From: a virus
Taxonomy: Duplodnaviria; Heunggongvirae; Uroviricota; Caudoviricetes
Virus record (IMG/VR): IMGVR_UViG_3300045988_151230
Length of the DNA stretch: 64,000 nucleotides
Direction: 5' to 3' (one strand)
Below, one piece after another: positions 18,791 to 42,200 of the stretch (its first letter is position 1; each line of letters begins with the position of its first letter). Both the position numbers and the translations under genes were made by a program. Under the pieces are notes generated by a model. The model saw only the letters and a program-made list of their open reading frames with translations. It was not told the DNA's origin and did no database searches.

Positions 18791-19933
18791 TTACAGGTCT
18801 GCAAACTGGCTTAGAGAAGCCTTATCCACGGTAGAATCGATCTGACCTACCAGATATGTGCTCTGCTCTGCCTCTTGTGGTGCAATTTGCAGTGTGTCGG
18901 TTAACAACCACTTGTTCATCCAGACCAGCGGATCAGTGGTAACTTCTGGAAATAAAGCCTTCAGGCCAAGACGATTCATAGCCAGATTGGTGCGGTATTT
19001 TACATAGGTTTTGAGAATATCCGCGTTTAAACCAATCATCGAACCGTCTTTGAAGAGATAGTCGGCCCAGTTCATTTCTTGTTCGGCGACTGATTTCATG
19101 GTGTCGTAAATGACGTTTTCTTCATCAGCAGCAATCTCTTTCCACAATAAACCTTCGCGACCGGTACGCATGAAGCGGATCATGCGTTCAGTTCCTTCGC
19201 AATGCAGAGCTTCATCACGGGCAATAAAGCGCATAATTTTGGTGTTACCCTCAAGCAACTTCCGTTCACCAAAGGCAAACGTACATGCAAAACTTACGTA
19301 GAAACGGATCGCCTCAAGCGCATTAATGGACACCAACGTGCGGAAAAGCTGACGATGCAAAGGGTATGGCTCCCAGCCATATTCATTTACGTACAGACGC
19401 TCAAATTCCTTCTCACCTAACGACTGGCGCTCGCAGGTCATCCCATAAAGCCTGTCATATTCAGCAGAGATACTGATCGCTCGGTTGATGATTTCTTCAT
19501 CCGTAACAATACCGTCAAAAACAATGCTCGGATCGTCCACCATGCCACGAATAATGTGGGTGTAGCTGCGGCTATGGATAGTCTCAGAGAAAGACCATGT
19601 TTCAACCCACGTTTCCAGTTCAGGAATAGAGATAAGCGGCAGCAGCGTTGCATTTGGGCTACGTCCCTGAACTGAATCGAGTAACGTTTGATAACGGAGA
19701 TTGCTCAGAAAAATGTGACGTTCGTGGTCCCGCAGCTTCGTGTTGAAGTCGATACGATCGCTCGAAATATCAACTTCTTCCGGCCGCCAGAAGAAAGACA
19801 ATTGACGTTCAATCAACTTTTCAAAATCACGGTATTTTTGCTGATCGTAACGTGCCACGTTGACAGATTGTCCGAGGAACATAGGCTCTTTGGTTGCATC
19901 ATTAGCACCCAAACGGAACGTTGAATATGACAT
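18791..19933 (-). CDS. nrdB: ribonucleotide reductase class Ia beta subunit
   Basis: Collinear with E. coli NrdB ([30 protein letters not shown]-terminal SQFADL). Confidence 0.9.
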
Positions 19934-19962
19934 GTGTTTTTCCTTTTTCTTTTTTGTTGCGT

Positions 19963-19998
19963 TTAAACAAGTTGTTATCTTATGTGTTTAAACAAGGC
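19963..19998. promoter_or_regulatory. recurring motif TTAAACAAGTTGTTATCTTA plus a second half-site GTTTAAACAAGG upstream of nrdB
   Basis: Lies between the nrdB start and the IS left end. Confidence 0.45.
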
Positions 19999-20018
19999 TT
20001 ACAAATCAAAGAGAAGGT

Positions 20019-21338
20019 GGGGATATCCCCTGAGGGATCCCCAGAAAATTTAGTAAACCATTATCATATTGGTATACCGTTGCTGTAGAACTTTCAGCCC
20101 TGCGTCAAGTGACAGTGTGTTTAGTATGAGTGGAGAATGTCGAATCACATTCTCCGCCAGTTTTAATAACGAGATGACTCGCCTGTGCTTCACTGTATTT
20201 GCCTGATATTTATGATGTATCCCTTTGTTTTCCAGGCTGAAACCGCTTAACCACATAATGATACTGGCTAATGTTGCGATCAGACTCAATACCGTGACCC
20301 GCCCGGATGAATGACTGGCACCAAACCGTAGTCCAAATCCCCAGCGAGGATTTTTTTCATCCCTGAAATTTTGCTCAATTTGCATTCTACGGCTGTATAA
20401 TTTCATTACCTGTTTTGGCGAGAACTCAGTACTGTTTGTGAAAATAAACCATGGTGATTTCCCGGCAGTACGAGCTTTAGCCGTCACCGATGGTCTGGTT
20501 GCTCTTTCCTTCGAGCGTTTAAATCTACGACCTTTAGGCTTACTTTTATAAAGATAAAAATGCCCTTCATGTTGTGCATTTTTATCTCGACCCAGCAGGC
20601 CTTCACCTAAATAAATTGCTGTCGTTGATGCTTTTGTGCCTGAGTCCGACACCTTTTCCCAGCCATTACCAACATTGTAATAATGATTGCCCAGTACCCG
20701 GCAAATATAGGTCCAGCCACGGGAGCGGAGCTGTTGGAACCATCGCCCCTGAAAACCGGCATCTGTAATAACAATGACATCAGTCCCGGGGGAAAAGCAC
20801 TCAGCAAGCGATTCCAGAAAACGCTCATGTACATCTGCATTCGCTGTCTGTGATGATGGAACGACACAACTCATCAACGGTAAAGAACGCCCGTCACATG
20901 CCAGGCTTGCCCGCAAAAGCTGAAAACGAGAGGCATGATAAGCACTCCAGTCAATGAGTATCACAACACGAGACATTCCCCGCGTAATCTTTTGGGTAAT
21001 TCGCTGAAAAATGGTGGAAACCTCATTTTGCAAATGTCGATTCCCCAACAGTCGATCCACCCGCTTTATTTTGTTTTTAACTGATGCCGTACCGGTTAAA
21101 TGACGCCCGATACTGGTAAGTGTGAGGGAAGCGCCATTTATTACAGCATTAGTTGCGTCAATCAGTGATTTTTGACGGTAAAGATGCAAAGGGGCCAGTA
21201 TGTTGTTAAGGAAATTTTGGCATAATGAACGTGCAGGCATAGTGGTGATCTCCTTGAAATTGTTAGCACAATCAATTAGATCACATCTCACTATGCCTGT
21301 CTTGTTTTCTGGGGATTCCTCAGGGGATATCCCCCACC
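20019..21338. mobile_element. IS4-family (IS10-like) insertion sequence, about 1.3 kb; exact ends ambiguous
   Basis: Terminal inverted repeats (C)TGAGGGATCCCCAGAAAA and TTTTCTGGGGATTCCTCA(G); both junctions carry GGGGATATCCCC. Confidence 0.7.
20050..21240 (-). CDS. IS4-family DDE transposase
   Basis: KRVDRLLGNRHLQ and YSRRMQIEQNFRDEK (Y-2-R-3-E-6-K) signature close to IS10 transposase; start taken at MPARSL inside the IS. Confidence 0.8.
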   Translation of the reverse strand: MPARSLCQNFLNNILAPLHLYRQKSLIDATNAVINGASLTLTSIGRHLTGTASVKNKIKRVDRLLGNRHLQNEVSTIFQRITQKITRGMSRVVILIDWSAYHASRFQLLRASLACDGRSLPLMSCVVPSSQTANADVHERFLESLAECFSPGTDVIVITDAGFQGRWFQQLRSRGWTYICRVLGNHYYNVGNGWEKVSDSGTKASTTAIYLGEGLLGRDKNAQHEGHFYLYKSKPKGRRFKRSKERATRPSVTAKARTAGKSPWFIFTNSTEFSPKQVMKLYSRRMQIEQNFRDEKNPRWGFGLRFGASHSSGRVTVLSLIATLASIIMWLSGFSLENKGIHHKYQANTVKHRRVISLLKLAENVIRHSPLILNTLSLDAGLKVLQQRYTNMIMVY

Positions 21339-21343
21339 ATATG

Positions 21344-23659
21344 TCAGATTTTGCAGGCTCCGTCGCACTCATCTTCTGGCTCGACGGCTACAGCTTGCGC
21401 CAGTGGATTCTGCGGTTCGTCGTCATCACGCTTTCCTGCACCATCTCTGGTGTTGTGGTAGTAAAGCGTTTTAACTCCCATCTTGTAGGCGAGAAGCAAA
21501 TCTGACAGTAGCGTCATCATTGGGACTTTATCGCCTTCAAAGCGAGAAGGGTCATAGTTGGTATTGGCTGAAATAGCCTGGTCAAAGAACTTCTGGATGA
21601 TCGCCACCTTTGTCAGATAGCCGCGGTTGTCCGGCATATCCCACAGGTATTCATACTGTTCCTTCAGTTTTTCAAACTCAGGCACGACCATCTTAACGAT
21701 GCCGTCCTTAGAAGATTTCACCGACACCGGGCCACGAGGCGGTTCGATGCCGTTGGTGGAATTAGTGATCTGGCTGGAAGTCTCGCATGGCATTTGTGCC
21801 GTCAGTGTGGAGTTGCGAAGGCCGTATTTTGCAATACGTTCACGCAGTTCTTCCCACGGCATCTTTAACTCAAAGTTGGTTTCGCCACTTTCGTCTAATG
21901 AAGAACGGTAATGGTCGATCGGCAACTGACCAATTGCGTACTTGGTCTGCTCAAACCAGTCACACTCACCTTTTGCTTCAGCAAGTCGGCAGCTGGCATC
22001 AAGAAGGTAATACTGGATAGCTTCGAATGTTTCATGCACCAGTTTATTGCCAGCGGTATCAGAATAACGAACGCCATTCTTTGCCAGGTAATAAGCAAAG
22101 TTGGTTACACCAATTCCCAAGCTACGACGAGCTTTGGCAGGCACTTCGGCTGCCTCCATCGGATAGTCTTGATAATCCAGTAACGAATCCAGTGCAGCAA
22201 CGGCATAGAACGCCACCTCTTTAAGAGACTCCAGTGAACGGATGGCTCCGAGGTTAAAAGCGGATAAAGTGCATAGCGCGATCTCACCGTTCGGGTCGTC
22301 GGTAAATGCCAGTGGACGGGTGGGTAGGGTGATCTCCATACACAGGTTTGACTGGCGGACAGGTGCAAGAGCAGGAATGAAAGCGCCATGCTCATTAATA
22401 TGATCGACGTTCGCAATATAAATTCGGCCCGTGGACGCTCGTTCCTGCATCAGAGATGAGAACAGCTCAATGGCAGGTACTGACTTCTTGCGAATTGAAT
22501 CATCGGCTTCGTATTTATGGTACAGCTTTTCAAACAGCTCCTGGTCTGTGAAGAAGGCTTCGTACATATCAGGCACATCATGCGGGCTGAACAGAGTGAT
22601 GTTCTCGCTTCTGACGAGTCGACGGTACATTAGACGGTTACTCATGACGCCGTAATCAAGATGGCGAACGCGGTTTTCATCAATACCACGGTTATTTTTC
22701 ACCACCAGCAGACTTTCAACTTCAAGATGCCAGATCGGGTAAAACGCTGTTGCTGCGCCACCACGAACACCACCTTGCGAACAAGATTTAACAGCCGTCT
22801 GGAAATGCTTCAGGAATGGAATAACTCCGGTATGGGTGGCTTCACCATTGCGGATCTCGCTGCCCAGCGCACGGATACGGCCAAAACCAATACCAATTCC
22901 AGCACGACGTGAAACGTAGTCGATAATTGCGGCTGAAGCTGCACTAATCCCTTTCAGACTATCGCCAGACTCAATCAGCACACAACTGGAGAACTGACGG
23001 GTTGGAGTACGGACGCCGGCCATGATTGGTGTGGGCAGAGACAGTTTGAACGTACTTGTAACGTCATAGAAACCTTTGACCATCTCCATACGTGTTTTGC
23101 CAGCGCAGTCGTCTTCCCAATTCTGGAACAGACACATGCCTACCAGCATATAGATATGTTGCGGCCCCTCATGAATCTCACCAGTAACACGGTTTTGAAC
23201 GAGGTATTTGCTTTGCAACTGCACCGTAGCTGCATAGCCAAAAAGATCGTCACGTTTCGGCTTAATGTAATTGCCGAGTTCTTCGATCTCTTCAAACGAA
23301 TAATGTGTCAGCAAATCCTTGTCATAAACGCCCTTGTTAACGTTCTTGACAATGTGTTGGTAGAAGTTCGGATAGTCGTAACGACCGAAGGCATCTTTGC
23401 GGATTTTAAAAATGTTCAGGCGGGCAGCCACCTGTGAGTAATTTGGTGCTTCTGGTGAGATCAAATCAGCGGCAGATTTAACCAAAGCCTCATGCAACTG
23501 GCTGGTGGTCATCCCATCAAAAATGCTGGCCGCAGCTCCCATTGCTACAGCGGATGCGCTTACACCACGAATGCCTTCTACGCCATACATTACGACGCGG
23601 TTGTATTTTTCTTCGGATAACGGCTCTGTTTGGCCGTTACGTTTTACGATGCTTATCAT
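21344..23659 (-). CDS. nrdA: ribonucleotide reductase class Ia alpha subunit
   Basis: 771 aa, collinear with E. coli NrdA including the C-terminal redox tail ending CDGACKI. Confidence 0.9.
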   Translation of the reverse strand: MISIVKRNGQTEPLSEEKYNRVVMYGVEGIRGVSASAVAMGAAASIFDGMTTSQLHEALVKSAADLISPEAPNYSQVAARLNIFKIRKDAFGRYDYPNFYQHIVKNVNKGVYDKDLLTHYSFEEIEELGNYIKPKRDDLFGYAATVQLQSKYLVQNRVTGEIHEGPQHIYMLVGMCLFQNWEDDCAGKTRMEMVKGFYDVTSTFKLSLPTPIMAGVRTPTRQFSSCVLIESGDSLKGISAASAAIIDYVSRRAGIGIGFGRIRALGSEIRNGEATHTGVIPFLKHFQTAVKSCSQGGVRGGAATAFYPIWHLEVESLLVVKNNRGIDENRVRHLDYGVMSNRLMYRRLVRSENITLFSPHDVPDMYEAFFTDQELFEKLYHKYEADDSIRKKSVPAIELFSSLMQERASTGRIYIANVDHINEHGAFIPALAPVRQSNLCMEITLPTRPLAFTDDPNGEIALCTLSAFNLGAIRSLESLKEVAFYAVAALDSLLDYQDYPMEAAEVPAKARRSLGIGVTNFAYYLAKNGVRYSDTAGNKLVHETFEAIQYYLLDASCRLAEAKGECDWFEQTKYAIGQLPIDHYRSSLDESGETNFELKMPWEELRERIAKYGLRNSTLTAQMPCETSSQITNSTNGIEPPRGPVSVKSSKDGIVKMVVPEFEKLKEQYEYLWDMPDNRGYLTKVAIIQKFFDQAISANTNYDPSRFEGDKVPMMTLLSDLLLAYKMGVKTLYYHNTRDGAGKRDDDEPQNPLAQAVAVEPEDECDGACKI

Positions 23660-33923: not shown

Positions 33924-36263
33924 TTACTCTTCTACTGACTCGGTGGGGTTGTCTTTTGCTCTTCGGTCGTCGATTGCCTGCAAAGCCGCAATGATTTCAG
34001 CCAGTGGCTTCTCCCGATACATCTCGACGATCTGCGATTTGGTGTATTTCTTGTCACCAATTTCAACTCGCCCGCTGGCGTTCTTTGGCAGGTATCCTTC
34101 TTCCAGCATGTACTCGACGAGCGATTCGATAACGTCGAGGCCACGAGTAGGATCGAAGTAGAATTTCCAGGTGCATTTGCCATACGGTGGTGCAACTTTG
34201 TTTTTGATGCATTCTGCGCCTACGTCCTGGCCGATCTTCTCTTTACCATCCTTCATCACCGATGCACCAAGACGGATACGTACAGAAGCGTAGAACTTCG
34301 GTGAATCTCCACCTGGCGACGTAGTAGGGTCGCCAAACATTACACCGATTTTTGTGCGAACCTGATTCAAGAAGATGATGCAGGCGTTGTATTTGCGTGC
34401 CCACAAAGCCAGAGTAGGGAAGTTCGCACTTGTCGCACGAGCCAGTGCCGTATTGTCGTTCATGTTTAGCTGATCTTTGTCTTTGGCAGTGCCTTCAGCC
34501 ATCTTTTCGAACTTCTCGGCTTTGGAGTTCGGAACCATAGACGCAAGTGAGTCAGCCACGATACAGATAGGTGCTGATTCAGGGATAAGCTCTTCATCAC
34601 GTACCAATTTAAGTATTGTGCCGATCAACTCTACAGAGTCTTCGAAGGTGTCAGGCTGCTTGTATACCCACTGACCGTCATCCTCATCTGCGTTCAGGCC
34701 ATTGGCTACAGCCAGGCCAACGTCAAAACTGTTTTCATGATCGAGGAATACCGCCAGACCATCTTGTTTTTGAGCGGAGATCATCGCTGCTGTTGCAAGG
34801 AATGTGTTGTGGCTGATAATCCCGTTAGACCAGAAAGAGTGTGTTTCCGGCATCGCTACGTCGAACGTTGGTGCTTCACCTTCCTCAATAGCCACGACTT
34901 CGTCGTAGAACAAGTTAGAGCCAATTACCGCTGCCAGTTGTGCAAACAGATGCTCGTTAAAACGATTCTTTCTGCCAATGAAGGAGACATAGATTTCTCG
35001 CAGTTTGTCTATTCCGACACGATCGCCGCGGCCAATAACGTGGTCTACCAGAGCGTAGTCTTCACGGGTGGTCTTGGTGAGCGACTCGTAGAGTGATTTC
35101 ACTAAGCCGCTGATGTGCGGAACATAGCCTGAGTAAGTGCGGTCAAAACCAATGTCCCGTTTGGTTGCCACTGATAAACGTGCCGGAGATTCGAAACCAA
35201 TCGTTGACAGAAAAAGGTCGTAATTAGAGCCACTGAATGACAGCCGGTAATATGTATTTTCATAACCCGCGACGTGTTTTTCAGAGATAGTTGACGTAAT
35301 CCCCAGATTCAGGAGCATGAGGCGAATTTGCTGTAGCAGCAGCCCACTCGCGCTCACAACCTCAATGCAGCGACCATCATTGACGTGGCATTCCAGCTCA
35401 AAGTAGCCGCGAAGGAATGCAATTTGAGCCTCGCTATTGGCGCGACGCACACTCAACGGAACCTGCTTGCCAGCAGCTTTCTCATACTCCAGACCATATT
35501 CTTTAAAAAGCAGCGAACGCACCTCTTTGCTAAACAGCACATGGTCTTCCGAGCCGTTATGTTTTCTCGTAACTGGCATCTTGTCTGATACCAGCGAAAT
35601 GAGGCGGTAGTACTCATCCTTGATGAAAGGATCTGTGTTAGAAAAATTCACTGAATTTTCAGAGGCCACGTATCCGTCAGCAATTAAATAGCCCATCAGT
35701 TTTGCGATATTGGCATCCAGGTGCTGATCGCCGAATTGATGTGTGCCAACCATTGAAGGAATCGTGTCGCCTACACTGATTTTTTCAGCATGTCGCCAGA
35801 CGACATTACCTAAGTCGTCAACCACACGGATTGGGTGACGGAACGTAGCCTCGATATAACCGCCTGATGCCAGCTTAATACGCTTGAATTTGCGACGGTT
35901 GTTCCATGTCAGGTGTGAGGTCTTCTCTATCACGCCATTTTCATTGATGAGTCCAACGTTATGCTCTACATCGCGAGTAGTGCATGTCGCTTTGTACCCT
36001 TCAATCTCAAACAACTCTTTCACTGTTACCATTCCACGCTCCGTCAGCAGCATGGTGTCTGCGGTAACACATTTCCCTGCACTTGGAGGACCGAATACTT
36101 CGACGATACGACCACATGGGAAGCCGCCATCGTAACGACCGGAAATAGCTTTGTTTAACGGTGGAAAGCCTGTATCAATCCAATGAGTTACTTTCTGAAT
36201 TTCGTCGTTGCTACCGATTTTCTTTTTCAGAGCAAGTGCCAGTGCGGATTTTCCTTTTGCCAT
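33924..36263 (-). CDS. recA: RecA recombinase interrupted by an intein
   Basis: Exteins align with RecA (GRIVEVFGPPSAGK ... IFLNQVRTKIGVMFGDPTTSPGG ... KNKVAPP); the Walker A is split after GK. Confidence 0.8.
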   Translation of the reverse strand: MAKGKSALALALKKKIGSNDEIQKVTHWIDTGFPPLNKAISGRYDGGFPCGRIVEVFGPPSAGKCVTADTMLLTERGMVTVKELFEIEGYKATCTTRDVEHNVGLINENGVIEKTSHLTWNNRRKFKRIKLASGGYIEATFRHPIRVVDDLGNVVWRHAEKISVGDTIPSMVGTHQFGDQHLDANIAKLMGYLIADGYVASENSVNFSNTDPFIKDEYYRLISLVSDKMPVTRKHNGSEDHVLFSKEVRSLLFKEYGLEYEKAAGKQVPLSVRRANSEAQIAFLRGYFELECHVNDGRCIEVVSASGLLLQQIRLMLLNLGITSTISEKHVAGYENTYYRLSFSGSNYDLFLSTIGFESPARLSVATKRDIGFDRTYSGYVPHISGLVKSLYESLTKTTREDYALVDHVIGRGDRVGIDKLREIYVSFIGRKNRFNEHLFAQLAAVIGSNLFYDEVVAIEEGEAPTFDVAMPETHSFWSNGIISHNTFLATAAMISAQKQDGLAVFLDHENSFDVGLAVANGLNADEDDGQWVYKQPDTFEDSVELIGTILKLVRDEELIPESAPICIVADSLASMVPNSKAEKFEKMAEGTAKDKDQLNMNDNTALARATSANFPTLALWARKYNACIIFLNQVRTKIGVMFGDPTTSPGGDSPKFYASVRIRLGASVMKDGKEKIGQDVGAECIKNKVAPPYGKCTWKFYFDPTRGLDVIESLVEYMLEEGYLPKNASGRVEIGDKKYTKSQIVEMYREKPLAEIIAALQAIDDRRAKDNPTESVEE
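34806..36071 (-). other. intein (about 422 aa) with LAGLIDADG-type homing endonuclease, inserted in the RecA P-loop
   Basis: Starts with Cys after GPPSAGK, ends with His-Asn before Thr; internal LMGYLIADGYVA and FLRGYFELE blocks. Confidence 0.7.
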
Positions 36264-36265
36264 GA

Positions 36266-36538
36266 TCAGGCTCCTTTTGTTTCGTTGATTCGTTTTAAAG
36301 CGGCGGATTCGTCGAATACAATCGCATCGTGATTAAGGAGTCTGGATACACGAGCGAGGATTTTTACGACCTGCTCGCTGACTAATCCAAACTCGCGATC
36401 TGTCGCTTTCATTCCGGCAGCGCCCAGAATTGACGGCAGTGCGATGACAGCGTACTCACCGTGATAAAAGACAATCTCTTTTGCCAGTTGGGTGGGGGTG
36501 GTTGTAGCGCCATTAATAATCGATTTAAGCATTAGCAA
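36266..36538 (-). CDS. hypothetical small protein
   Basis: 90-aa ORF between the flap nuclease and RecA. Confidence 0.4.
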   Translation of the reverse strand: MLMLKSIINGATTTPTQLAKEIVFYHGEYAVIALPSILGAAGMKATDREFGLVSEQVVKILARVSRLLNHDAIVFDESAALKRINETKGA

Positions 36539-37527
36539 TACCTTTCGAATGGAAGAACAAACACTTCAAGGTCTTCAAGGAACGAACGGAAATTCAGCTC
36601 GTAGCACAGTTGCTCGAATGCTTTCACGTCACGATTGCCTTTGATTGTTTCGATTTCGGTAGGCGGAAACTTCGTCTCAATCAGGTTCATTAGCGTGATG
36701 TTTCTCTTGAACGCTTCGAGCATTCGACAGCCTGTTTTCTCGTTGAAGGCATTCTTCGCTAGTTTGTTGAAGGCGGTCTTATGGCGTCCTTTGTCAACCA
36801 CGATTGAGCCGTCGTTGATGCCGCGTACCATCGTTGCGACACTTCCCCATTCATGCAGCAGCTCTTTCGCACCGCCAGCACCAATGCCACCAACACCGCT
36901 AATGTTGTCCGATTTATCGCCTTGTAATGCTTTTGCTTCCAAAAATGCGCGAGGAGTAGCGAATCCTGTCAGCTCCGCAAATTGCTCAAAATTAACCTGC
37001 TTGTTTTTGGCGTCTTCACGCAGGCTTACCCAGCTTACGTTTTCGCGAACTAACTGAAGCCAGTCGCTATCGCCTGTTAACAGATAGATGTGTTCAACGG
37101 TTGGCTGCGCTGCCATGCGGGATACCAGCAGCCCGGCCAGATCATCCGCTTCTGCATCTTTTGCAATGAGTTGGGTAACTCCAAGCGCGGTCATCATTTT
37201 GAGGATGTATGGCTTCTGGATAGCAAAGCCTTCCTTCATCTTTTTCATATCAGGATCGTCGTCGCGATTTGCTTTGTAGTCCGGGTAAAAGTCGCGACGC
37301 TTGTCACTAAATCCATCCCAAAGAATCATAGGTCGGGCATGGAGGATGGAGGCATAACGACGGACGTTCTTAACAAAGCCGAAAGCAGCCTGTACTTCCA
37401 TTTCGCCGTTGTGCAATTTGTCAGATTGTTGGTGGTAATAACCCAGGCTATTGCCATCTACGAAGAGATAATTCACCGGTACATTCCTTCCAAAAAGTAA
37501 GGCGTCCGTAGACGCCTTACTGGTCAC
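36532..37527 (-). CDS. 5'-3' exonuclease / flap endonuclease
   Basis: YLFVDGNSL, EADDLAG, LLTGDSDWLQL, GDKSDNISGVGGIG motifs. Confidence 0.8.
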   Translation of the reverse strand: MTSKASTDALLFGRNVPVNYLFVDGNSLGYYHQQSDKLHNGEMEVQAAFGFVKNVRRYASILHARPMILWDGFSDKRRDFYPDYKANRDDDPDMKKMKEGFAIQKPYILKMMTALGVTQLIAKDAEADDLAGLLVSRMAAQPTVEHIYLLTGDSDWLQLVRENVSWVSLREDAKNKQVNFEQFAELTGFATPRAFLEAKALQGDKSDNISGVGGIGAGGAKELLHEWGSVATMVRGINDGSIVVDKGRHKTAFNKLAKNAFNEKTGCRMLEAFKRNITLMNLIETKFPPTEIETIKGNRDVKAFEQLCYELNFRSFLEDLEVFVLPFERYC

Positions 37528-37536
37528 GTAATGGGA

Positions 37537-38565
37537 TTACAGAGAGTCCAGCTCTCTCAGTAGGTCATCCAGACCTTCATCTTCCGTCGCAGATGCGGCT
37601 GCTACAGATGTCGCTGCGACTGCTTCAGACTCTTTGACTGATACTGCAACGGCAGCGGAACTTGCTTCTGGTTTAAATTCAGTTTCAACGGCACGGAGGA
37701 TTTCTTCATCAACCAGACTGGTTGGTTCAGAAGCTGGGGTGTGAGCGGTAGCTACAGCAGTCGCACCCTCCGTATGACCAGTGACAGAGCCAAATCCAGG
37801 TAGTGCCGCAGCCGATGTTTTCGCGGTTGAGGAAATTGCTGGTGCAGATGCTGCGGCAGTTGGTGCAGCGATGCCAATCAGACGACCCATAGTGCGAACT
37901 GTCGACAGAAGACGAGTTTCATCAGCCTGATTTGCGTATGCGATCAGATCATGCTGGGTATTCCAGAATTTATCTTCGATATCGCCTTTGTAGACTTTAC
38001 GCTTAGGCGAGACGTCATATTTGGTATCGCGACCAGAGCCAGTACGTTTAATCAGGAATGCGTAGCCTTCCTCTTTGCTCAGTGGATTGCCGATATCATC
38101 AGCGATGTCTTCGGTGATTGCTTTGCAGATATCATCGAATACAGTAGACGGCAGCTCGATTAACTGGCATTTCTCAGCATCTGCGAAATCCTCACGAGCA
38201 GAAAGAATGCCGTTGACCAGGTAGCGAGGAGTGGCACGCATTTGACCGATGCGTTCTTCCATTGCTTTGTTACCCTTGTGACGAGCGCGACCTTCCATCA
38301 CCATTTCGCATAGCTGACAAGCGCGACCGTGAGTATGTTGCTCACAAATATAAGCGTTGGTTGCTTCTTTACCTTCCTCGTTCTGATACTTAACGTAGTG
38401 CATACCGAAAGTCTGGAAGAACTTACCGTTTGGGTCGTCTTTATTCGGGAAGATGCGGATATAGTTGACGCCGTCTTTTAAGCGAGTCAGATCAACGTTG
38501 TTACCACGTTTGGCGGCAATGTCTTCACGAGTTTTGTTAAGCAAATCAAGTAATGTCTTAGACAT
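37537..38565 (-). CDS. gp32-like single-stranded DNA-binding protein
   Basis: IRIFP, zinc-ligand block CEQHTHGRACQLC, RYLVNG and acidic C-terminal tail DDLLRELDSL. Confidence 0.6.
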   Translation of the reverse strand: MSKTLLDLLNKTREDIAAKRGNNVDLTRLKDGVNYIRIFPNKDDPNGKFFQTFGMHYVKYQNEEGKEATNAYICEQHTHGRACQLCEMVMEGRARHKGNKAMEERIGQMRATPRYLVNGILSAREDFADAEKCQLIELPSTVFDDICKAITEDIADDIGNPLSKEEGYAFLIKRTGSGRDTKYDVSPKRKVYKGDIEDKFWNTQHDLIAYANQADETRLLSTVRTMGRLIGIAAPTAAASAPAISSTAKTSAAALPGFGSVTGHTEGATAVATAHTPASEPTSLVDEEILRAVETEFKPEASSAAVAVSVKESEAVAATSVAAASATEDEGLDDLLRELDSL

Positions 38566-38647
38566 GTGTTTCTCCTTGTTGTGATTTGGCCGATGGCGCT
38601 ATGCGCGTTGGGCTTTCGTTCATTCGTGGCTCTTTCGAGCTGTTAAA

Positions 38648-38678
38648 TGATAGATCAGTACTTACTTATTATCTATCA
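38648..38678. repeat. AT-rich palindrome TGATAGAT...ATCTATCA around a TACTTACTTA core
   Basis: 8-bp inverted arms; upstream of the SSB gene start. Confidence 0.4.
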
Positions 38679-38682
38679 AAAA

Positions 38683-39114
38683 TCAACGGGGAGTAATAAA
38701 GCGTTCAGAGCCTAATCGCTCTAATTCAACGATGGTCATCTTTGACGCCTGAACGATCATGTCTCGGCGATGCGAAAAGGCGGCGACAGCATGTTTGTAT
38801 ATGTCTGCGATGTGCCGTGCTTCATCCAACTTCTGCCTTTTAGACAGATACTGTGGGTTTGTTTTAACCTTAGCGTCCAGTACAGACTCGTTGAACTTAA
38901 TGCCGTTCATACTCAAGTTCTTACGCTCTGTGTCGTATAGCTTTGCTTCAACAGCTTCAAGGTTAAGTTTTGCCTCTGCGACACTTCTTTCTGCATGAGC
39001 GAGTTTTGAGCCATACTCCATTAAAAGGCGGGGTTGTTTACGCCAGACTTCCTCCAGATTGTCTCGGTCAAACTCGAGATCAGACATTATTTTCTCGTAA
39101 ATATCGGTGATCAT
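38683..39114 (-). CDS. hypothetical protein
   Basis: 143-aa ORF between the DnaE-like and SSB genes. Confidence 0.45.
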   Translation of the reverse strand: MITDIYEKIMSDLEFDRDNLEEVWRKQPRLLMEYGSKLAHAERSVAEAKLNLEAVEAKLYDTERKNLSMNGIKFNESVLDAKVKTNPQYLSKRQKLDEARHIADIYKHAVAAFSHRRDMIVQASKMTIVELERLGSERFITPR

Positions 39115-39239
39115 GTGCTTTCCTTTTTACTTATCATCTTATATTGATTATATCATTGTGATGATAAGGCAAGGAGTTCGAGGATAGGGGATATGAGGGG
39201 ATAAGAGAAAACATGGCCATAGAGGCCATGTTTATTGGA

Positions 39240-42200
39240 TCACGACTTAATAGTTTCTGCTACGTCGGCTAATATCGCTTCTAGTCGTTCTCCCTCTTCA
39301 GGTCTGAAGTAAAGAATGTTGGGGTTAAACCCGTAAAAGACAGTAACGTCAAGGTCTGGAAGATACTCCTTCCTGCCGACCAAATCGGATGGCTTGTTTT
39401 TGTTGTTAAACAATGCCGTTGCCCGGCTGCCACACGTCAGCACATAGGTCGGACGCACCAGATTGATCTCTTCACGTATAAAGTCGGTGAACTGGCCGAT
39501 CTCGTCTTTGGTGTAGTCTTTTTCTTTGTCTTTAACCTTCTTGCAAACGCCTGTGACATAGAGATCGCCCATGCGTAAATCTCCAGCCGTCAATAGCTTG
39601 GCCTTAAAGTCGTCGTATCCGTTCTCCATAAAGTAACCGGTTCGAGCATCATTGCCGTTCGCATTGTCCAGAATGATCATGATTTTCGGCTTAATACCAA
39701 TGCTGGGGCGGATTAGTTCATCACCTAAGCCCATTTCAGCCGCCATCCGCGTCATGAGTACGTTAATCTCAGCCGAACGTTTGGGGTTCATCTCAAACGG
39801 ACGTGAGGCTTTAACTGCGTCTATGACAAGGTTTCCCATCAATTCAGCCTGGTCGCGTAGGCGCTCTGGATCAGTTGCTGGCAGACTACCTGGCTCGATG
39901 GATGCAAACGCCCCTACTTTTTGCAGCGATTCGCGCACTCGACTATTACAGGCACGTTTCTCGACAGCTTCTTCGAATTGCGCCAGTGACTCGAATTTGC
40001 CGCCAACTTTTTCTCGCGCTCTCATGATGGCTTGGCAGCCATTCTCAGAACACCCCTTCACAGCAGAGAATGGCGCATACAGCACCTGGCTGCCATCTTC
40101 AAGTGTGCGGATCTCGATTCGGTTAGATGACACGTTAACGTCTGGTGGCAATACGCGAATACCATAGGTCAGCGCATCTTTAACCAGCCCCTGGTGTTTA
40201 TCTTCGCCAAGAATAGTGAGAGCAGCAGCGAAAAACTCTGCGGGATAATGAGTTTTCAACCACATAGATTGATAACTGATTAAGGAGTAAGCAACAGAGT
40301 GTGATTTGTTGAACTGGTAGGCACCATTTTTTTCGAATGCGGTCCAGATCTCCTTCGCTTTCATCTCTGATAGCCCTGGATGTGACACTGTAACGCGTAC
40401 TGCGTTTATAGGTAATTTTGCGCCGTGCTCAAGTGCCTCTTCGACAGTTTTCAGAGTTCCGTCTTCGCATTTAAAATGTTCCGCACGGTGAATGCGCTGT
40501 GTAGTGCCATCTTCCAGCTCAACGTCTATCCAGCCAGCTTGAGCCTGAACGATGAACTTCTCGCCCATGCTCTTCATTTTTTCCATGTCTTTTTTGCCGA
40601 TCGCTTTACGAACGCCGTCAGCTTCAGCCATTGTGAAGCCAGCAAGCAATCGAGTCGCGTTCATCGTCTGTTCCTGATAGAGAATCACGCCATTTGTTTC
40701 TGCGGTAAGTTCATCAAGAACGGGGTGTAATGATTCCGGCGTCATAAAGCCTTTGGCTACAGAAACATAGTCATCCAACATGCCTGACTGAATTGGCCCC
40801 GGCCGGAAGAGCGCAGTCGTAGCAACAACCGTTTTAAAGCTCATTGGCTCAATTCCACCACCTAAATCTTTAAGCAGCTTGCGCATTGGGCCTGATTCAA
40901 GCTGGAAAACACCTTGAGTGTACCCAGCAGCAAAACCATCCAGCACCTTGCGATCTTCAAGAGAAATGGCATCAAGATTGATATCTTCACCTGTGTTCTC
41001 TTTTATGTAGCGTTTTGCACTATCGAGCAAATCGAGAGTTGCCAGACCAAGTACGTCCAGTTTAATTAGGCCCATAGCCTCGCAGTAACGCTTGTCAAAT
41101 GCGATACAACGCGCGTCACCACGGCGTTCAACCGGTGTACGTTCTGTCAGAGGAACACCTGCTACGATCATCCCTGCCGCATGTCTACCAAAGCCACGCA
41201 TAAGACTTTGTAACTTGCAGGCTGCATTGAATGCATCAGGATATTTTGTTGCGTATTTGTCGAGACTTGCCAGTTGTTCGCGCAGCTCTTCCAATGGAAG
41301 GCTATCATCCTCGACGTTCTTCAGTTCTTTTGATACCGCCATATCTGCGGACTCCACACCATAAATACGAGCGGTGTCACGTAGTGCAGAGGCCGCGCCC
41401 AGGTAGGTGAAGTTCGGAATGCCTGCAACGTAATCTTCGCCGTAGCGTTCATTCAGATACTCGATCACCTCATGGCGACGTGCCTGGCTGAAGTCCAAGT
41501 CCGCATCCGGCAAGTCGAGACGCTCAGGGTTGATGAAACGCTCAAACAGAAGACCGTGACGGATTGGGTCGACGTTGGTTATGCCTATGCACCACGCCAC
41601 CAGAGAACCGGCAGAGGAACCGCGACCAGGCCCGACAGGAATGCCAGTTTCACGGCTGTGATTCATCAGATCGCGTACCATCAGGAAGTAACCACAGAAT
41701 CCCAGGCGAGTCAGCGTGTCCATTTCGTACTTTAGCCGCTCAACATAAACCCTGTTCTCAGAAGCAGGTGGTGTGTATCCAAACTCTTTTGTGGTAAGAC
41801 GTTTACGCAGCCCTGCAACAGCCAGTTTCATCAGCGTTGCAGGTTCGTCGTCTGCCATCTTGGGCAGTGCTGGTGGCAATTCATGCCAGCGCCATGTGCA
41901 GGCATCGATAATGGAGTCCTGCGTTGTTGAGGCCATTGCAGCTGTTACCGGCACATCCATGCGAACGGAGAAGGCTTTAAGCGCCTCAAGGAGATGGCGA
42001 CGACCATTGATGGCGTTATCTCGCTGGTGGGGGATACGCAGACGATGCGGCTGGTCGATTTTTATGTTGTTCGTAACCATGTGCGCAATGTCTTTAATGT
42101 CTGCATCGTCGATCGATTCGTAATAAGCGGGATAGAACGCTACTGGCTCTATTTTCAGTGCGCTGGCGACTTTCATCGCTCGGACGTTAATCTGGTCGTA

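Follow-up and report, generated by a model that had tools for sequence, protein, structure and literature searches.

Introduction

IS10, which serves as type member for the IS10 group within the IS4 family of insertion sequences (IS), inserts into a 9-bp NGCTNAGCN target, encodes RNA-OUT, and is subject to fold-back inhibition and to Dam control, as established in the literature of the Kleckner laboratory. IS are also found in phage-plasmids. Members of the SSU5 group often differ from public sequences only by the gain or loss of an IS, and recent surveys name the entry of host IS during the plasmid state as a main source of variation in these elements (bioRxiv 10.1101/2025.09.12.675607). One SSU5-like phage-plasmid, Cyrano, produces virions (PMC9928086). 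In the searched text of the work on IS of the SSU5 group, neither the site between nrdA and nrdB nor ISEc60 is described (bioRxiv 10.1101/2025.09.12.675607; PMC9928086).

The DNA analysed here is a stretch of 64,000 nucleotides (the window), in which an IS lies between nrdA and nrdB. The best explanation overall, which we consider very probable, is that a complete and apparently active ISEc60 moved from a replicon of an Escherichia host into a resident phage-plasmid of the SSU5/pLF82 type. The event is real but ordinary, i.e., a catalogued IS in a well-known type of phage-plasmid. It nonetheless draws attention to the regulatory layout of the locus and to the target preference of the IS, both of which are considered below.

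The nrdA-nrdB Locus and Its IS-Free Relatives

The features of the locus are collected in Table 1. On the minus strand, the order is nrdA, IS, nrdB, with 20 nt between the nrdA stop codon and the IS end. Comparison with IS-free relatives, a check that the initial annotation had proposed, finds 1304 bp of extra DNA, and comparison with further ISEc60 copies (see below) places the ends of the IS at 20030 and 21323, with a 10-bp target duplication; the span first given for the element, 19934-21343, is the entire nrdA-nrdB intergenic region. The mechanically listed ORF of 440 aa (20050-21372) starts outside the IS, at an ATG within the end of nrdA, and copies identical to this one that are annotated in RefSeq give a transposase of 396 aa, preceded by AAGGAG. 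A MazG-like gene and a thymidylate synthase gene are present downstream of nrdA/nrdB.

Table 1. Features of the nrdA-nrdB locus (positions are those of the window).
Feature	Position	Strand	Basis or remark
nrdA, class Ia ribonucleotide reductase alpha, 771 aa, intact	21344-23659	-	Pfam RNR large-chain domains
Upstream half of the hairpin of the putative former nrdA terminator, GGTGGGGGATATCCC, including the right duplication copy	21324-21338	-	
Complete ISEc60, 1294 bp, transposase oriented like nrdA and nrdB	20030-21323	-	Copy comparison
Transposase-proximal inverted repeat, CTGAGGAATCCCCAGAAAA, without GATC; equivalent to the IS10 "outside" end	21305-21323	-	
Hairpin, 66 nt, with the Shine-Dalgarno sequence (AAGGAG) and AUG of the transposase in its 3' arm	21234-21299	-	
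Transposase gene, 396 aa, DDE type	20050-21240	-	Profiles; alignment with IS10A; RefSeq annotation
Transposase-distal inverted repeat, CTGAGGGATCCCCAGAAAA; equivalent to the IS10 "inside" end	20030-20048	+	Dam site GATC at 20036-20039
Left duplication copy (20020-20029), downstream terminator arm CCCCACC and T-rich tail TTCTCTTTGATTT	20003-20029	-	
Putative nrdB promoter, intact: -35 TTGTAA (20004-19999), 16-nt spacer, -10 TAAGAT (19982-19977)	19977-20004	-	
Two exact CTTGTTTAAAC repeats, 25 bp apart, overlapping the putative nrdB promoter	19961-19996	-	
nrdB, class Ia ribonucleotide reductase beta, 380 aa, intact	18791-19933	-	Pfam RNR small chain

Almost the whole window is collinear with NZ_CP024264.1, from E. 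coli O169:H41, in blocks that are 97.2-99.9% identical, and this homology includes RepB, DnaB, dnaE, and tail genes. Collinearity extends to a circular 111-kb plasmid and to phage Cyrano (the same as pLF82); the backbone is 98-99% identical to this plasmid and, in the region compared, to Cyrano/pLF82. Judged from its sequence, the host replicon is a phage-plasmid of the SSU5/pLF82 type. Integration into a chromosome, to which apbC and metG at the start of the window might have pointed, was ruled out, as the circular 111-kb plasmid has the same genes. A composite transposon was ruled out as well, since the window holds only two ISEc60 ends and, relative to NZ_CP024264.1, no other insertion of the IS type.

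At an identity of at least 95%, the nrdA-nrdB flanks find a match in more than 200 E. coli plasmids, and in IS-free plasmids of this species the spacing of the two genes is about 106 bp. Over the relatives examined (E. coli plasmids, Cyrano, and 74 IMG/VR loci), the gap is 93-131 bp, or 512-513 bp in one subgroup, and none of them has an IS between nrdA and nrdB; the earlier reading that a normally adjacent nrdAB pair has been split is thus confirmed. A query of 3801 bp across the insertion spans 2496-2497 bp in all 50 matches listed, top-scoring records included, and relative to IS-free DNA the insertion adds 1304 bp (3801 versus 2497), i.e., 1294 bp of IS and 10 bp of duplicated target. The empty site, AAGGTGGGGATATCCCCCACCATATG, was seen in Cyrano and in two E. 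coli plasmids, and it contains the sequence GGGATATCCC in a single copy. No record that covers at least 80% of the query across the insertion was found in INPHARED, PLSDB, or the complete E. coli genomes of RefSeq, and the exact IS junction is absent from IMG/VR and from the GTDB representatives; the 25 metagenome contigs that carry an ISEc60 end all have other flanks.

Identity, Ends, and Origin of the Inserted Element

In a megablast search of complete E. coli genomes, the segment 20020-21333 proved identical at 1314 of 1314 positions to the chromosome of FDAARGOS_943 (NZ_CP065615.1), and other copies of the element, in chromosomes and plasmids, are 99.7-99.9% identical to that of the window. 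RefSeq labels the matching copies "IS4-like element ISEc60 family transposase", in annotations that cover E. coli, Shigella, and E. albertii genomes. The search for the transposase among known IS, another of the checks initially suggested, thereby ended with ISEc60 as annotated in RefSeq, the protein being 100% identical by tblastn to the product of a gene annotated as ISEc60 transposase. Under the usual naming practice, copies belong to the same element if their DNA identity is above about 95%, and the window copy is above this threshold. By these matches the element is ISEc60, a name that follows the RefSeq annotation. Near-full-length copies occur in only 15 of 5426 complete E. coli genomes and reach 38-39 per genome, so that ISEc60 is rare overall but has multiplied in some few lineages.

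The assignment of the transposase to the IS4 family, with a likeness to IS10, had been made from the sequence by the initial annotation, which named the lack of a DDE transposase fold as the observation that would speak against it. At the level of sequence, both relevant models score above their cut-offs, namely DDE_Tnp_1 of Pfam (PF01609; E=2e-20, 73.6 bits, cut-off 23) and the IS4-family model of NCBIfam (NF033591; 360.5 bits, cut-off 152). Over 93% of its length, the protein also aligns with the IS10A transposase at 35-36% identity, and it is 36% identical to that of ISVsa5. In the alignment with IS10A, D97, D160, and E289 are invariant, as is the set Y282-R285-E289-K296; from the IS10 literature, we take the D, D, E triad and the residues of the Y-(2)-R-(3)-E-(6)-K motif to be catalytic. 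A sequence search of the PDB with the transposase returned no significant match, and hence no solved relative of the Tn5 type, and we infer a DDE (RNase-H-like) fold from the profile matches and from the homology to IS10A. Further characters of the IS4 family (IS10 group) are the 5'-CTGA with which the inverted repeats start and a duplication whose length falls within 9-12 bp.

The ends of the IS could be defined by comparison with 12 further complete copies. All 13 share the termini CTGAGGGATCCCC...GGGGATTCCTCAG, and 12 of them are 1294 bp long, the remaining, frameshifted copy measuring 1292 bp. The inverted repeats are 19 bp long and match at 18 positions, and the single mismatch produces a GATC in the transposase-distal end only. 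On either side of the IS stands the 10-bp duplication GGGATATCCC (20020-20029 and 21324-21333), a 10-mer that occurs nowhere else in the window (0.01 chance matches expected). Duplications at complete ISEc60 copies are likewise 10 bp long, with 11 bp at one site. The two junctions had been noticed at the outset to share a palindrome, on account of which the target duplication and the inverted-repeat ends were held to be inseparable by eye. The first part of this observation stands, the 12-mer GGGGATATCCCC being found at 20019-20030 and at 21323-21334, where it consists of the 10-bp direct repeat, one terminal base of the IS (C or G), and one flanking base; the second part has been overtaken, as the 12 further copies and an empty site in mscL now separate the two. 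At the mscL insertion, the uninterrupted reading frame of the gene is known, and this requires C as the first base of the IS, G as its last, and a duplication of exactly 10 bp. The same boundary follows at an insertion in a fimbrial operon, because it is fixed there by the lengths of the G-run and the C-run.

These flanks bear directly on the possibility that the position of the IS is an assembly artefact, i.e., that a repeat was misplaced. The high copy number that ISEc60 can reach in a genome is a classic cause of misassembly, and the junction was present in no other record searched. However, the IS is bounded by an exact direct repeat whose sequence is single-copy in the empty site, and this sequence also agrees with the target consensus that the other ISEc60 sites give (see below), whereas a misjoin would not make a target duplication. 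We therefore hold an artefact to be highly improbable. Even less can be said for the 1294 bp being ancestral phage-plasmid DNA that the relatives have lost, which had been named beforehand as a finding that would overturn the IS reading. No point in its support was found, while all relatives have an uninterrupted hairpin at the site and the same 1294 bp recurs in chromosomes and plasmids, at many sites that are unrelated to one another, each time with a duplication of its own; its probability is close to nil.

Acquisition of ISEc60 from a host replicon is thus retained as the explanation, and the insertion is recent, because no difference separates the window flanks from those of the closest IS-free relative (NZ_CP024264.1 for the nrdA flank), or the IS from a chromosomal copy (100% identity in both cases). 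The earlier description of the insertion as recent and host-derived holds on these grounds, the chromosomal match extending over 1314 bp and the ORF, both inverted repeats, and the duplication being intact. Insertion would have followed a cut-and-paste mechanism catalysed by the DDE transposase, with a 10-bp stagger between the cuts, like that of IS10 and Tn5.

Target Preference of ISEc60

The target preference of ISEc60 was examined on 33 distinct left flanks, taken from 12 annotated copies, 25 metagenome contigs, and one Erwinia contig; many of these 33 come from one metagenome sample, probably from a single strain, and represent distinct sites in one genetic background. The consensus over the 33 sites is G-GGG-A-W-W-N-CCC. 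Base by base, the last 10 positions of the flank are G (32/33), G (29), G (28), A (18), T or A (30), A or T (28), N, C (33), C (26), and C (29), and position -11 is a G in 27 of the 33. These frequencies show a strong preference of ISEc60 for GGG-N4-CCC sites. Several sites for which both flanks are known form longer palindromes.

The backbone of the window, i.e., the 62.7 kb left after removal of the IS and of one duplication copy, contains exactly one GGGNNNNCCC, versus 5.5 expected from shuffles and 9 from base composition, and this one occurrence is the putative terminator hairpin described in the next section. That the hairpin was hit would need no further reason than its G4/C4 stem, as the backbone offers ISEc60 no other good target. 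In another plasmid, pCFSAN029787_01, two copies of ISEc60 lie head to tail with only a 10-mer between them; GGTAAATCCC is present there three times, which would be expected had the duplication served as a target again.

From these observations, we tentatively propose, as a possibility that we rate somewhat below even, that ISEc60 is near-site-specific for a symmetric G(3-4)-N4-C(3-4) target. Such a target would match the GC stem plus tetraloop found in many intrinsic terminators and other short palindromes, thereby steering the IS to gene ends; in addition, its terminal C and G would rebuild GGGG-N4-CCCC at both junctions, so that each insertion would create two new targets and could seed head-to-tail arrays. 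No description of a GGG-N4-CCC target rule, or of target rebuilding by ISEc60, was found in the papers searched. This preference, strong and apparently unreported, could be used to predict insertion sites.

Putative Terminator and nrdB Promoter, and Predicted Effects of the Insertion

In the empty site of Cyrano, the nrdA strand reads as a hairpin, GGTGGGGGATATCCCCACC, with 6 GC pairs among the 8 of its stem, and then TTCTCTTTGA, and is terminator-like in a terminator scan. Conservation of this structure was followed in loci around NrdB relatives, 80 of which were fetched from IMG/VR; 74 are SSU5-like and reduce to 34 distinct sequences, with 63-100% NrdB identity, and many of these relatives have an nrdB that is 100% identical to that of the window. 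Hairpins were folded for each sequence separately, as a MAFFT alignment put the 5' arms of the subgroups out of structural register. In all 34, the stop codon of nrdA is followed within a few bases by a GC-rich hairpin (-11.5 to -17.3 kcal/mol), with stems that vary by subgroup (GGTGGGG, GTGGGG, GGTGGGGC, GGTGGGC, and GGTGAGC), and then by a T-rich tail, which in 29 of them has 5-7 T in its first 10 nt. The conserved hairpin and T-run look like the intrinsic terminator of nrdA. The IS splits the hairpin through its loop, and the terminator scan of the window no longer detects it.

Directly after the terminator tail, 32 of the 34 distinct relatives have TTGNNN, exactly 16 nt, and TANNNT (CAAAAT in one). 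Among relatives whose NrdB is 88-100% identical, every second hexamer is TAAGAT, with one TAGGAT as the exception, and the spacer is otherwise variable. This promoter-like element is intact in the window, 25 nt beyond the IS end. It matches the consensus at 8 of 12 positions, and a generic sigma-70 scan of the empty site with a threshold of 9/12 found no nrdB promoter; the promoter call comes from comparison across relatives. The CTTGTTTAAAC repeats that overlap the element, initially described as a promoter-proximal motif, are partly kept in relatives.

Transcript levels in a relative without the IS point in the same direction. With Cyrano in E. coli LF82, RNA of nrdB (CYRAN_70) exceeds that of nrdA (CYRAN_69) in 10 of 10 samples, with values such as 5.91 versus 3.68 log2(FPKM+5), these RNA-seq values being near background in lysogens (PMC9928086 S1 Table). 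Differential RNA stability could be an alternative cause of this excess. An independent nrdB promoter fits the data, because the downstream gene is expressed above nrdA across a terminator. Judged from sequence conservation, nrdB thus probably keeps its own promoter in the IS-bearing element.

The one less secure part of the initial interpretation is that the insertion may alter nrdB expression. A substantial change in this expression was considered, either through polarity, should nrdB normally rely on read-through from nrdA, or through an outward promoter at the nrdB-proximal end of the IS. The insertion adds 1.3 kb between the two genes and destroys the hairpin, and a promoter-like TCTACA-18-GATAAT on the minus strand (20089-20060), a match to the consensus only, points to nrdB. 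In addition, a new hairpin of -16.1 kcal/mol can arise at the junction from the end of the IS and the duplication, with 3 nt separating it from the former T-run, and it could terminate read-through. However, the 5 promoter-like sites of the region are within the shuffled expectation of 3.1 +/- 1.7, and the conserved element, with its fixed 16-nt spacing, is untouched. The excess of nrdB over nrdA RNA in IS-free Cyrano also argues that nrdB does not depend on read-through (PMC9928086). A substantial change is therefore rather unlikely, although it deserves more weight than the two alternatives discussed above.

According to the reading that we prefer, nrdB would be driven by its own conserved promoter and its output would be little changed; we infer that nrdB expression is largely preserved and expect no large effect. 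The main predicted effect of the insertion is the loss of the nrdA terminator. Lacking it, nrdA transcripts would enter the IS at its transposase-proximal end, in the orientation of the transposase gene. The hairpin at the transposase start, which buries the ribosome-binding site and the AUG, would then block fortuitous translation of nrdA read-through, by analogy with the fold-back logic of IS10, and the new junction hairpin, together with the old T-run, could end read-through transcripts before the nrdB promoter.

The insertion reveals a regulatory layout that is conserved across the family, with nrdA followed by a probable terminator, a probable separate nrdB promoter, and nrdB, and it is this layout that would explain why an insertion is tolerated here. 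It also offers a clean, datable case of a host IS entering a phage-plasmid during residence in the plasmid state. The current understanding of IS elements and of phage-plasmids is left unchanged.

Comparison With IS10 and Other Known Systems

The insertion is the same kind of event as the IS gain and loss described for the SSU5 group (bioRxiv 10.1101/2025.09.12.675607). Compared with ISEc60 elsewhere, which has the same ends, length, and sequence, the window copy differs in location only.

With IS10A, the element shares a single transposase of the DDE type (about 400 aa, with the D, D, E and Y-R-E-K residues conserved), ends of the form CTGA-GAATCCCC (in IS10A, CTGAAGAATCCCC outside and CTGAAGGATCCCC inside), and a GATC in the transposase-distal end only, which suggests a control by Dam methylation analogous to that of IS10. 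Both also have a symmetric target consensus and a long hairpin over the transposase start, which in ISEc60 lies within the first 90 nt of the IS. In ISEc60, the 124-nt region around this start folds with -38.9 kcal/mol (z -5.9) on the minus strand and with -43.7 kcal/mol (z -4.8) on the plus strand. Across five related IS, down to 50% protein identity, the hairpin is paired in 90% of cells, versus 28-48% with slid partners, and it includes two compensatory pairs, a covariation support that comes from these 5 sequences. The Rfam model of RNA-OUT (RF00240) scores 16.8 bits at 21233-21303 (+), against a gathering threshold of 41, whereas IS10A, as a positive control, scores 85.9 bits at the equivalent place. 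The match is not significant, 16.8 bits being no better than what generic hairpin families give, and the 66-nt hairpin is therefore regarded not as a member of the RNA-OUT family but as a positional and structural analogue of the RNA-OUT/fold-back region of IS10, which it resembles in place, strand, and shape. A generic sigma-70 scan of the window found no transposase promoter.

The two elements are otherwise clearly distinct. The amino acid identity of their transposases is only 35-36%, ISEc60 duplicates 10 bp whereas IS10 duplicates 9 bp, the target is GGG-N4-CCC in ISEc60 and GCTNAGC in IS10, and the ISEc60 hairpin has no significant Rfam RNA-OUT match. Closer to ISEc60 are ISSfl1 of Shigella flexneri and a relative in Salmonella, whose transposases are 50-52% identical to its own (52% for ISSfl1). 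Both have an identical transposase-proximal end, CTGAGGAATCCCCAG, and the same hairpin at the start codon, with compensatory changes, yet they are different elements.

Mobile elements and backbone of the phage-plasmid

The ISEc60 copy is not the only recent mobile-element gain in the window: an intein of roughly 421 aa, with LAGLIDADG-type motifs, interrupts the phage-plasmid's RecA-like gene within the Walker A motif (GPPSAGK|C...HN|T). The corresponding 1263-bp insert is missing from the IS-free E. coli O169:H41 relative NZ_CP024264.1, which is otherwise 99% identical to the window, and this absence identifies it as a second recent acquisition. Elsewhere, 154 bp of the window (39153-39306) stand in place of 1083 bp of NZ_CP024264.1 (28093-29176), a segment containing a hypothetical gene of 196 aa. 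The adjoining block, 36072-39152, displays 97.2% identity to the same relative, versus more than 99.3% elsewhere. Taken together, the replaced segment and its less conserved neighbor suggest a recombination patch.

The metG and apbC genes at the window start could have marked a junction with a chromosome. This possibility was rejected because both genes also occur on NZ_CP083480.1, a circular plasmid of 111 kb whose metG copy is a pseudogene; their presence there indicates that these copies are part of the phage-plasmid backbone.

Features of the window and their coordinates
Feature	Position	Strand	Description
RecA-like gene	33924-36263	-	779 aa, with intein; insert at 34809-36071
metG and apbC	~1-1570		metG partial, cut by window edge; adjoining S24 peptidase gene
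CTTGTTTAAAC repeats	19961-19971, 19986-19996	-	two exact copies, 25 bp apart, overlapping putative nrdB promoter

ISEc60 at other sites and in other hosts

Two ISEc60 copies lie head-to-tail in NZ_CP011417.1 (64100-67100; positions 205-2822 of this locus, L127), separated solely by the 10-bp sequence GGTAAATCCC. This 10-mer is also found at each outer flank, and its three copies altogether imply that the second element used the first one's target duplication as its own insertion site. A hairpin of F-type plasmids near yubG, GGCGGGGATTTTCCCCGCC, is an independent hot spot: it carries ISEc60 in either orientation depending on the record (L006, L008, L009, L029, L030, and L035), with an 11-bp duplication, the only departure from 10 bp seen. 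An exact ISEc60 end is present in Candidatus Erwinia dacicola, an olive-fly symbiont (NZ_MAYS01000218.1, L042), with the same flank as in the metagenome contig L033; judging from this match, the element is evidently not restricted to Escherichia and Shigella.

The nrdA-nrdB spacer and the putative nrdB promoter

In one subgroup of IMG/VR relatives (L101, L108, L110, and similar loci), whose NrdB identity is about 80%, the nrdA-nrdB spacer reaches 512-513 bp, and an additional small ORF appears to separate the terminator from nrdB. Within the window, the first of the CTTGTTTAAAC repeats includes a 10-bp palindrome, TGTTTAAACA. These repeats, which are partially conserved among relatives, could constitute an operator but show no resemblance to an NrdR box.
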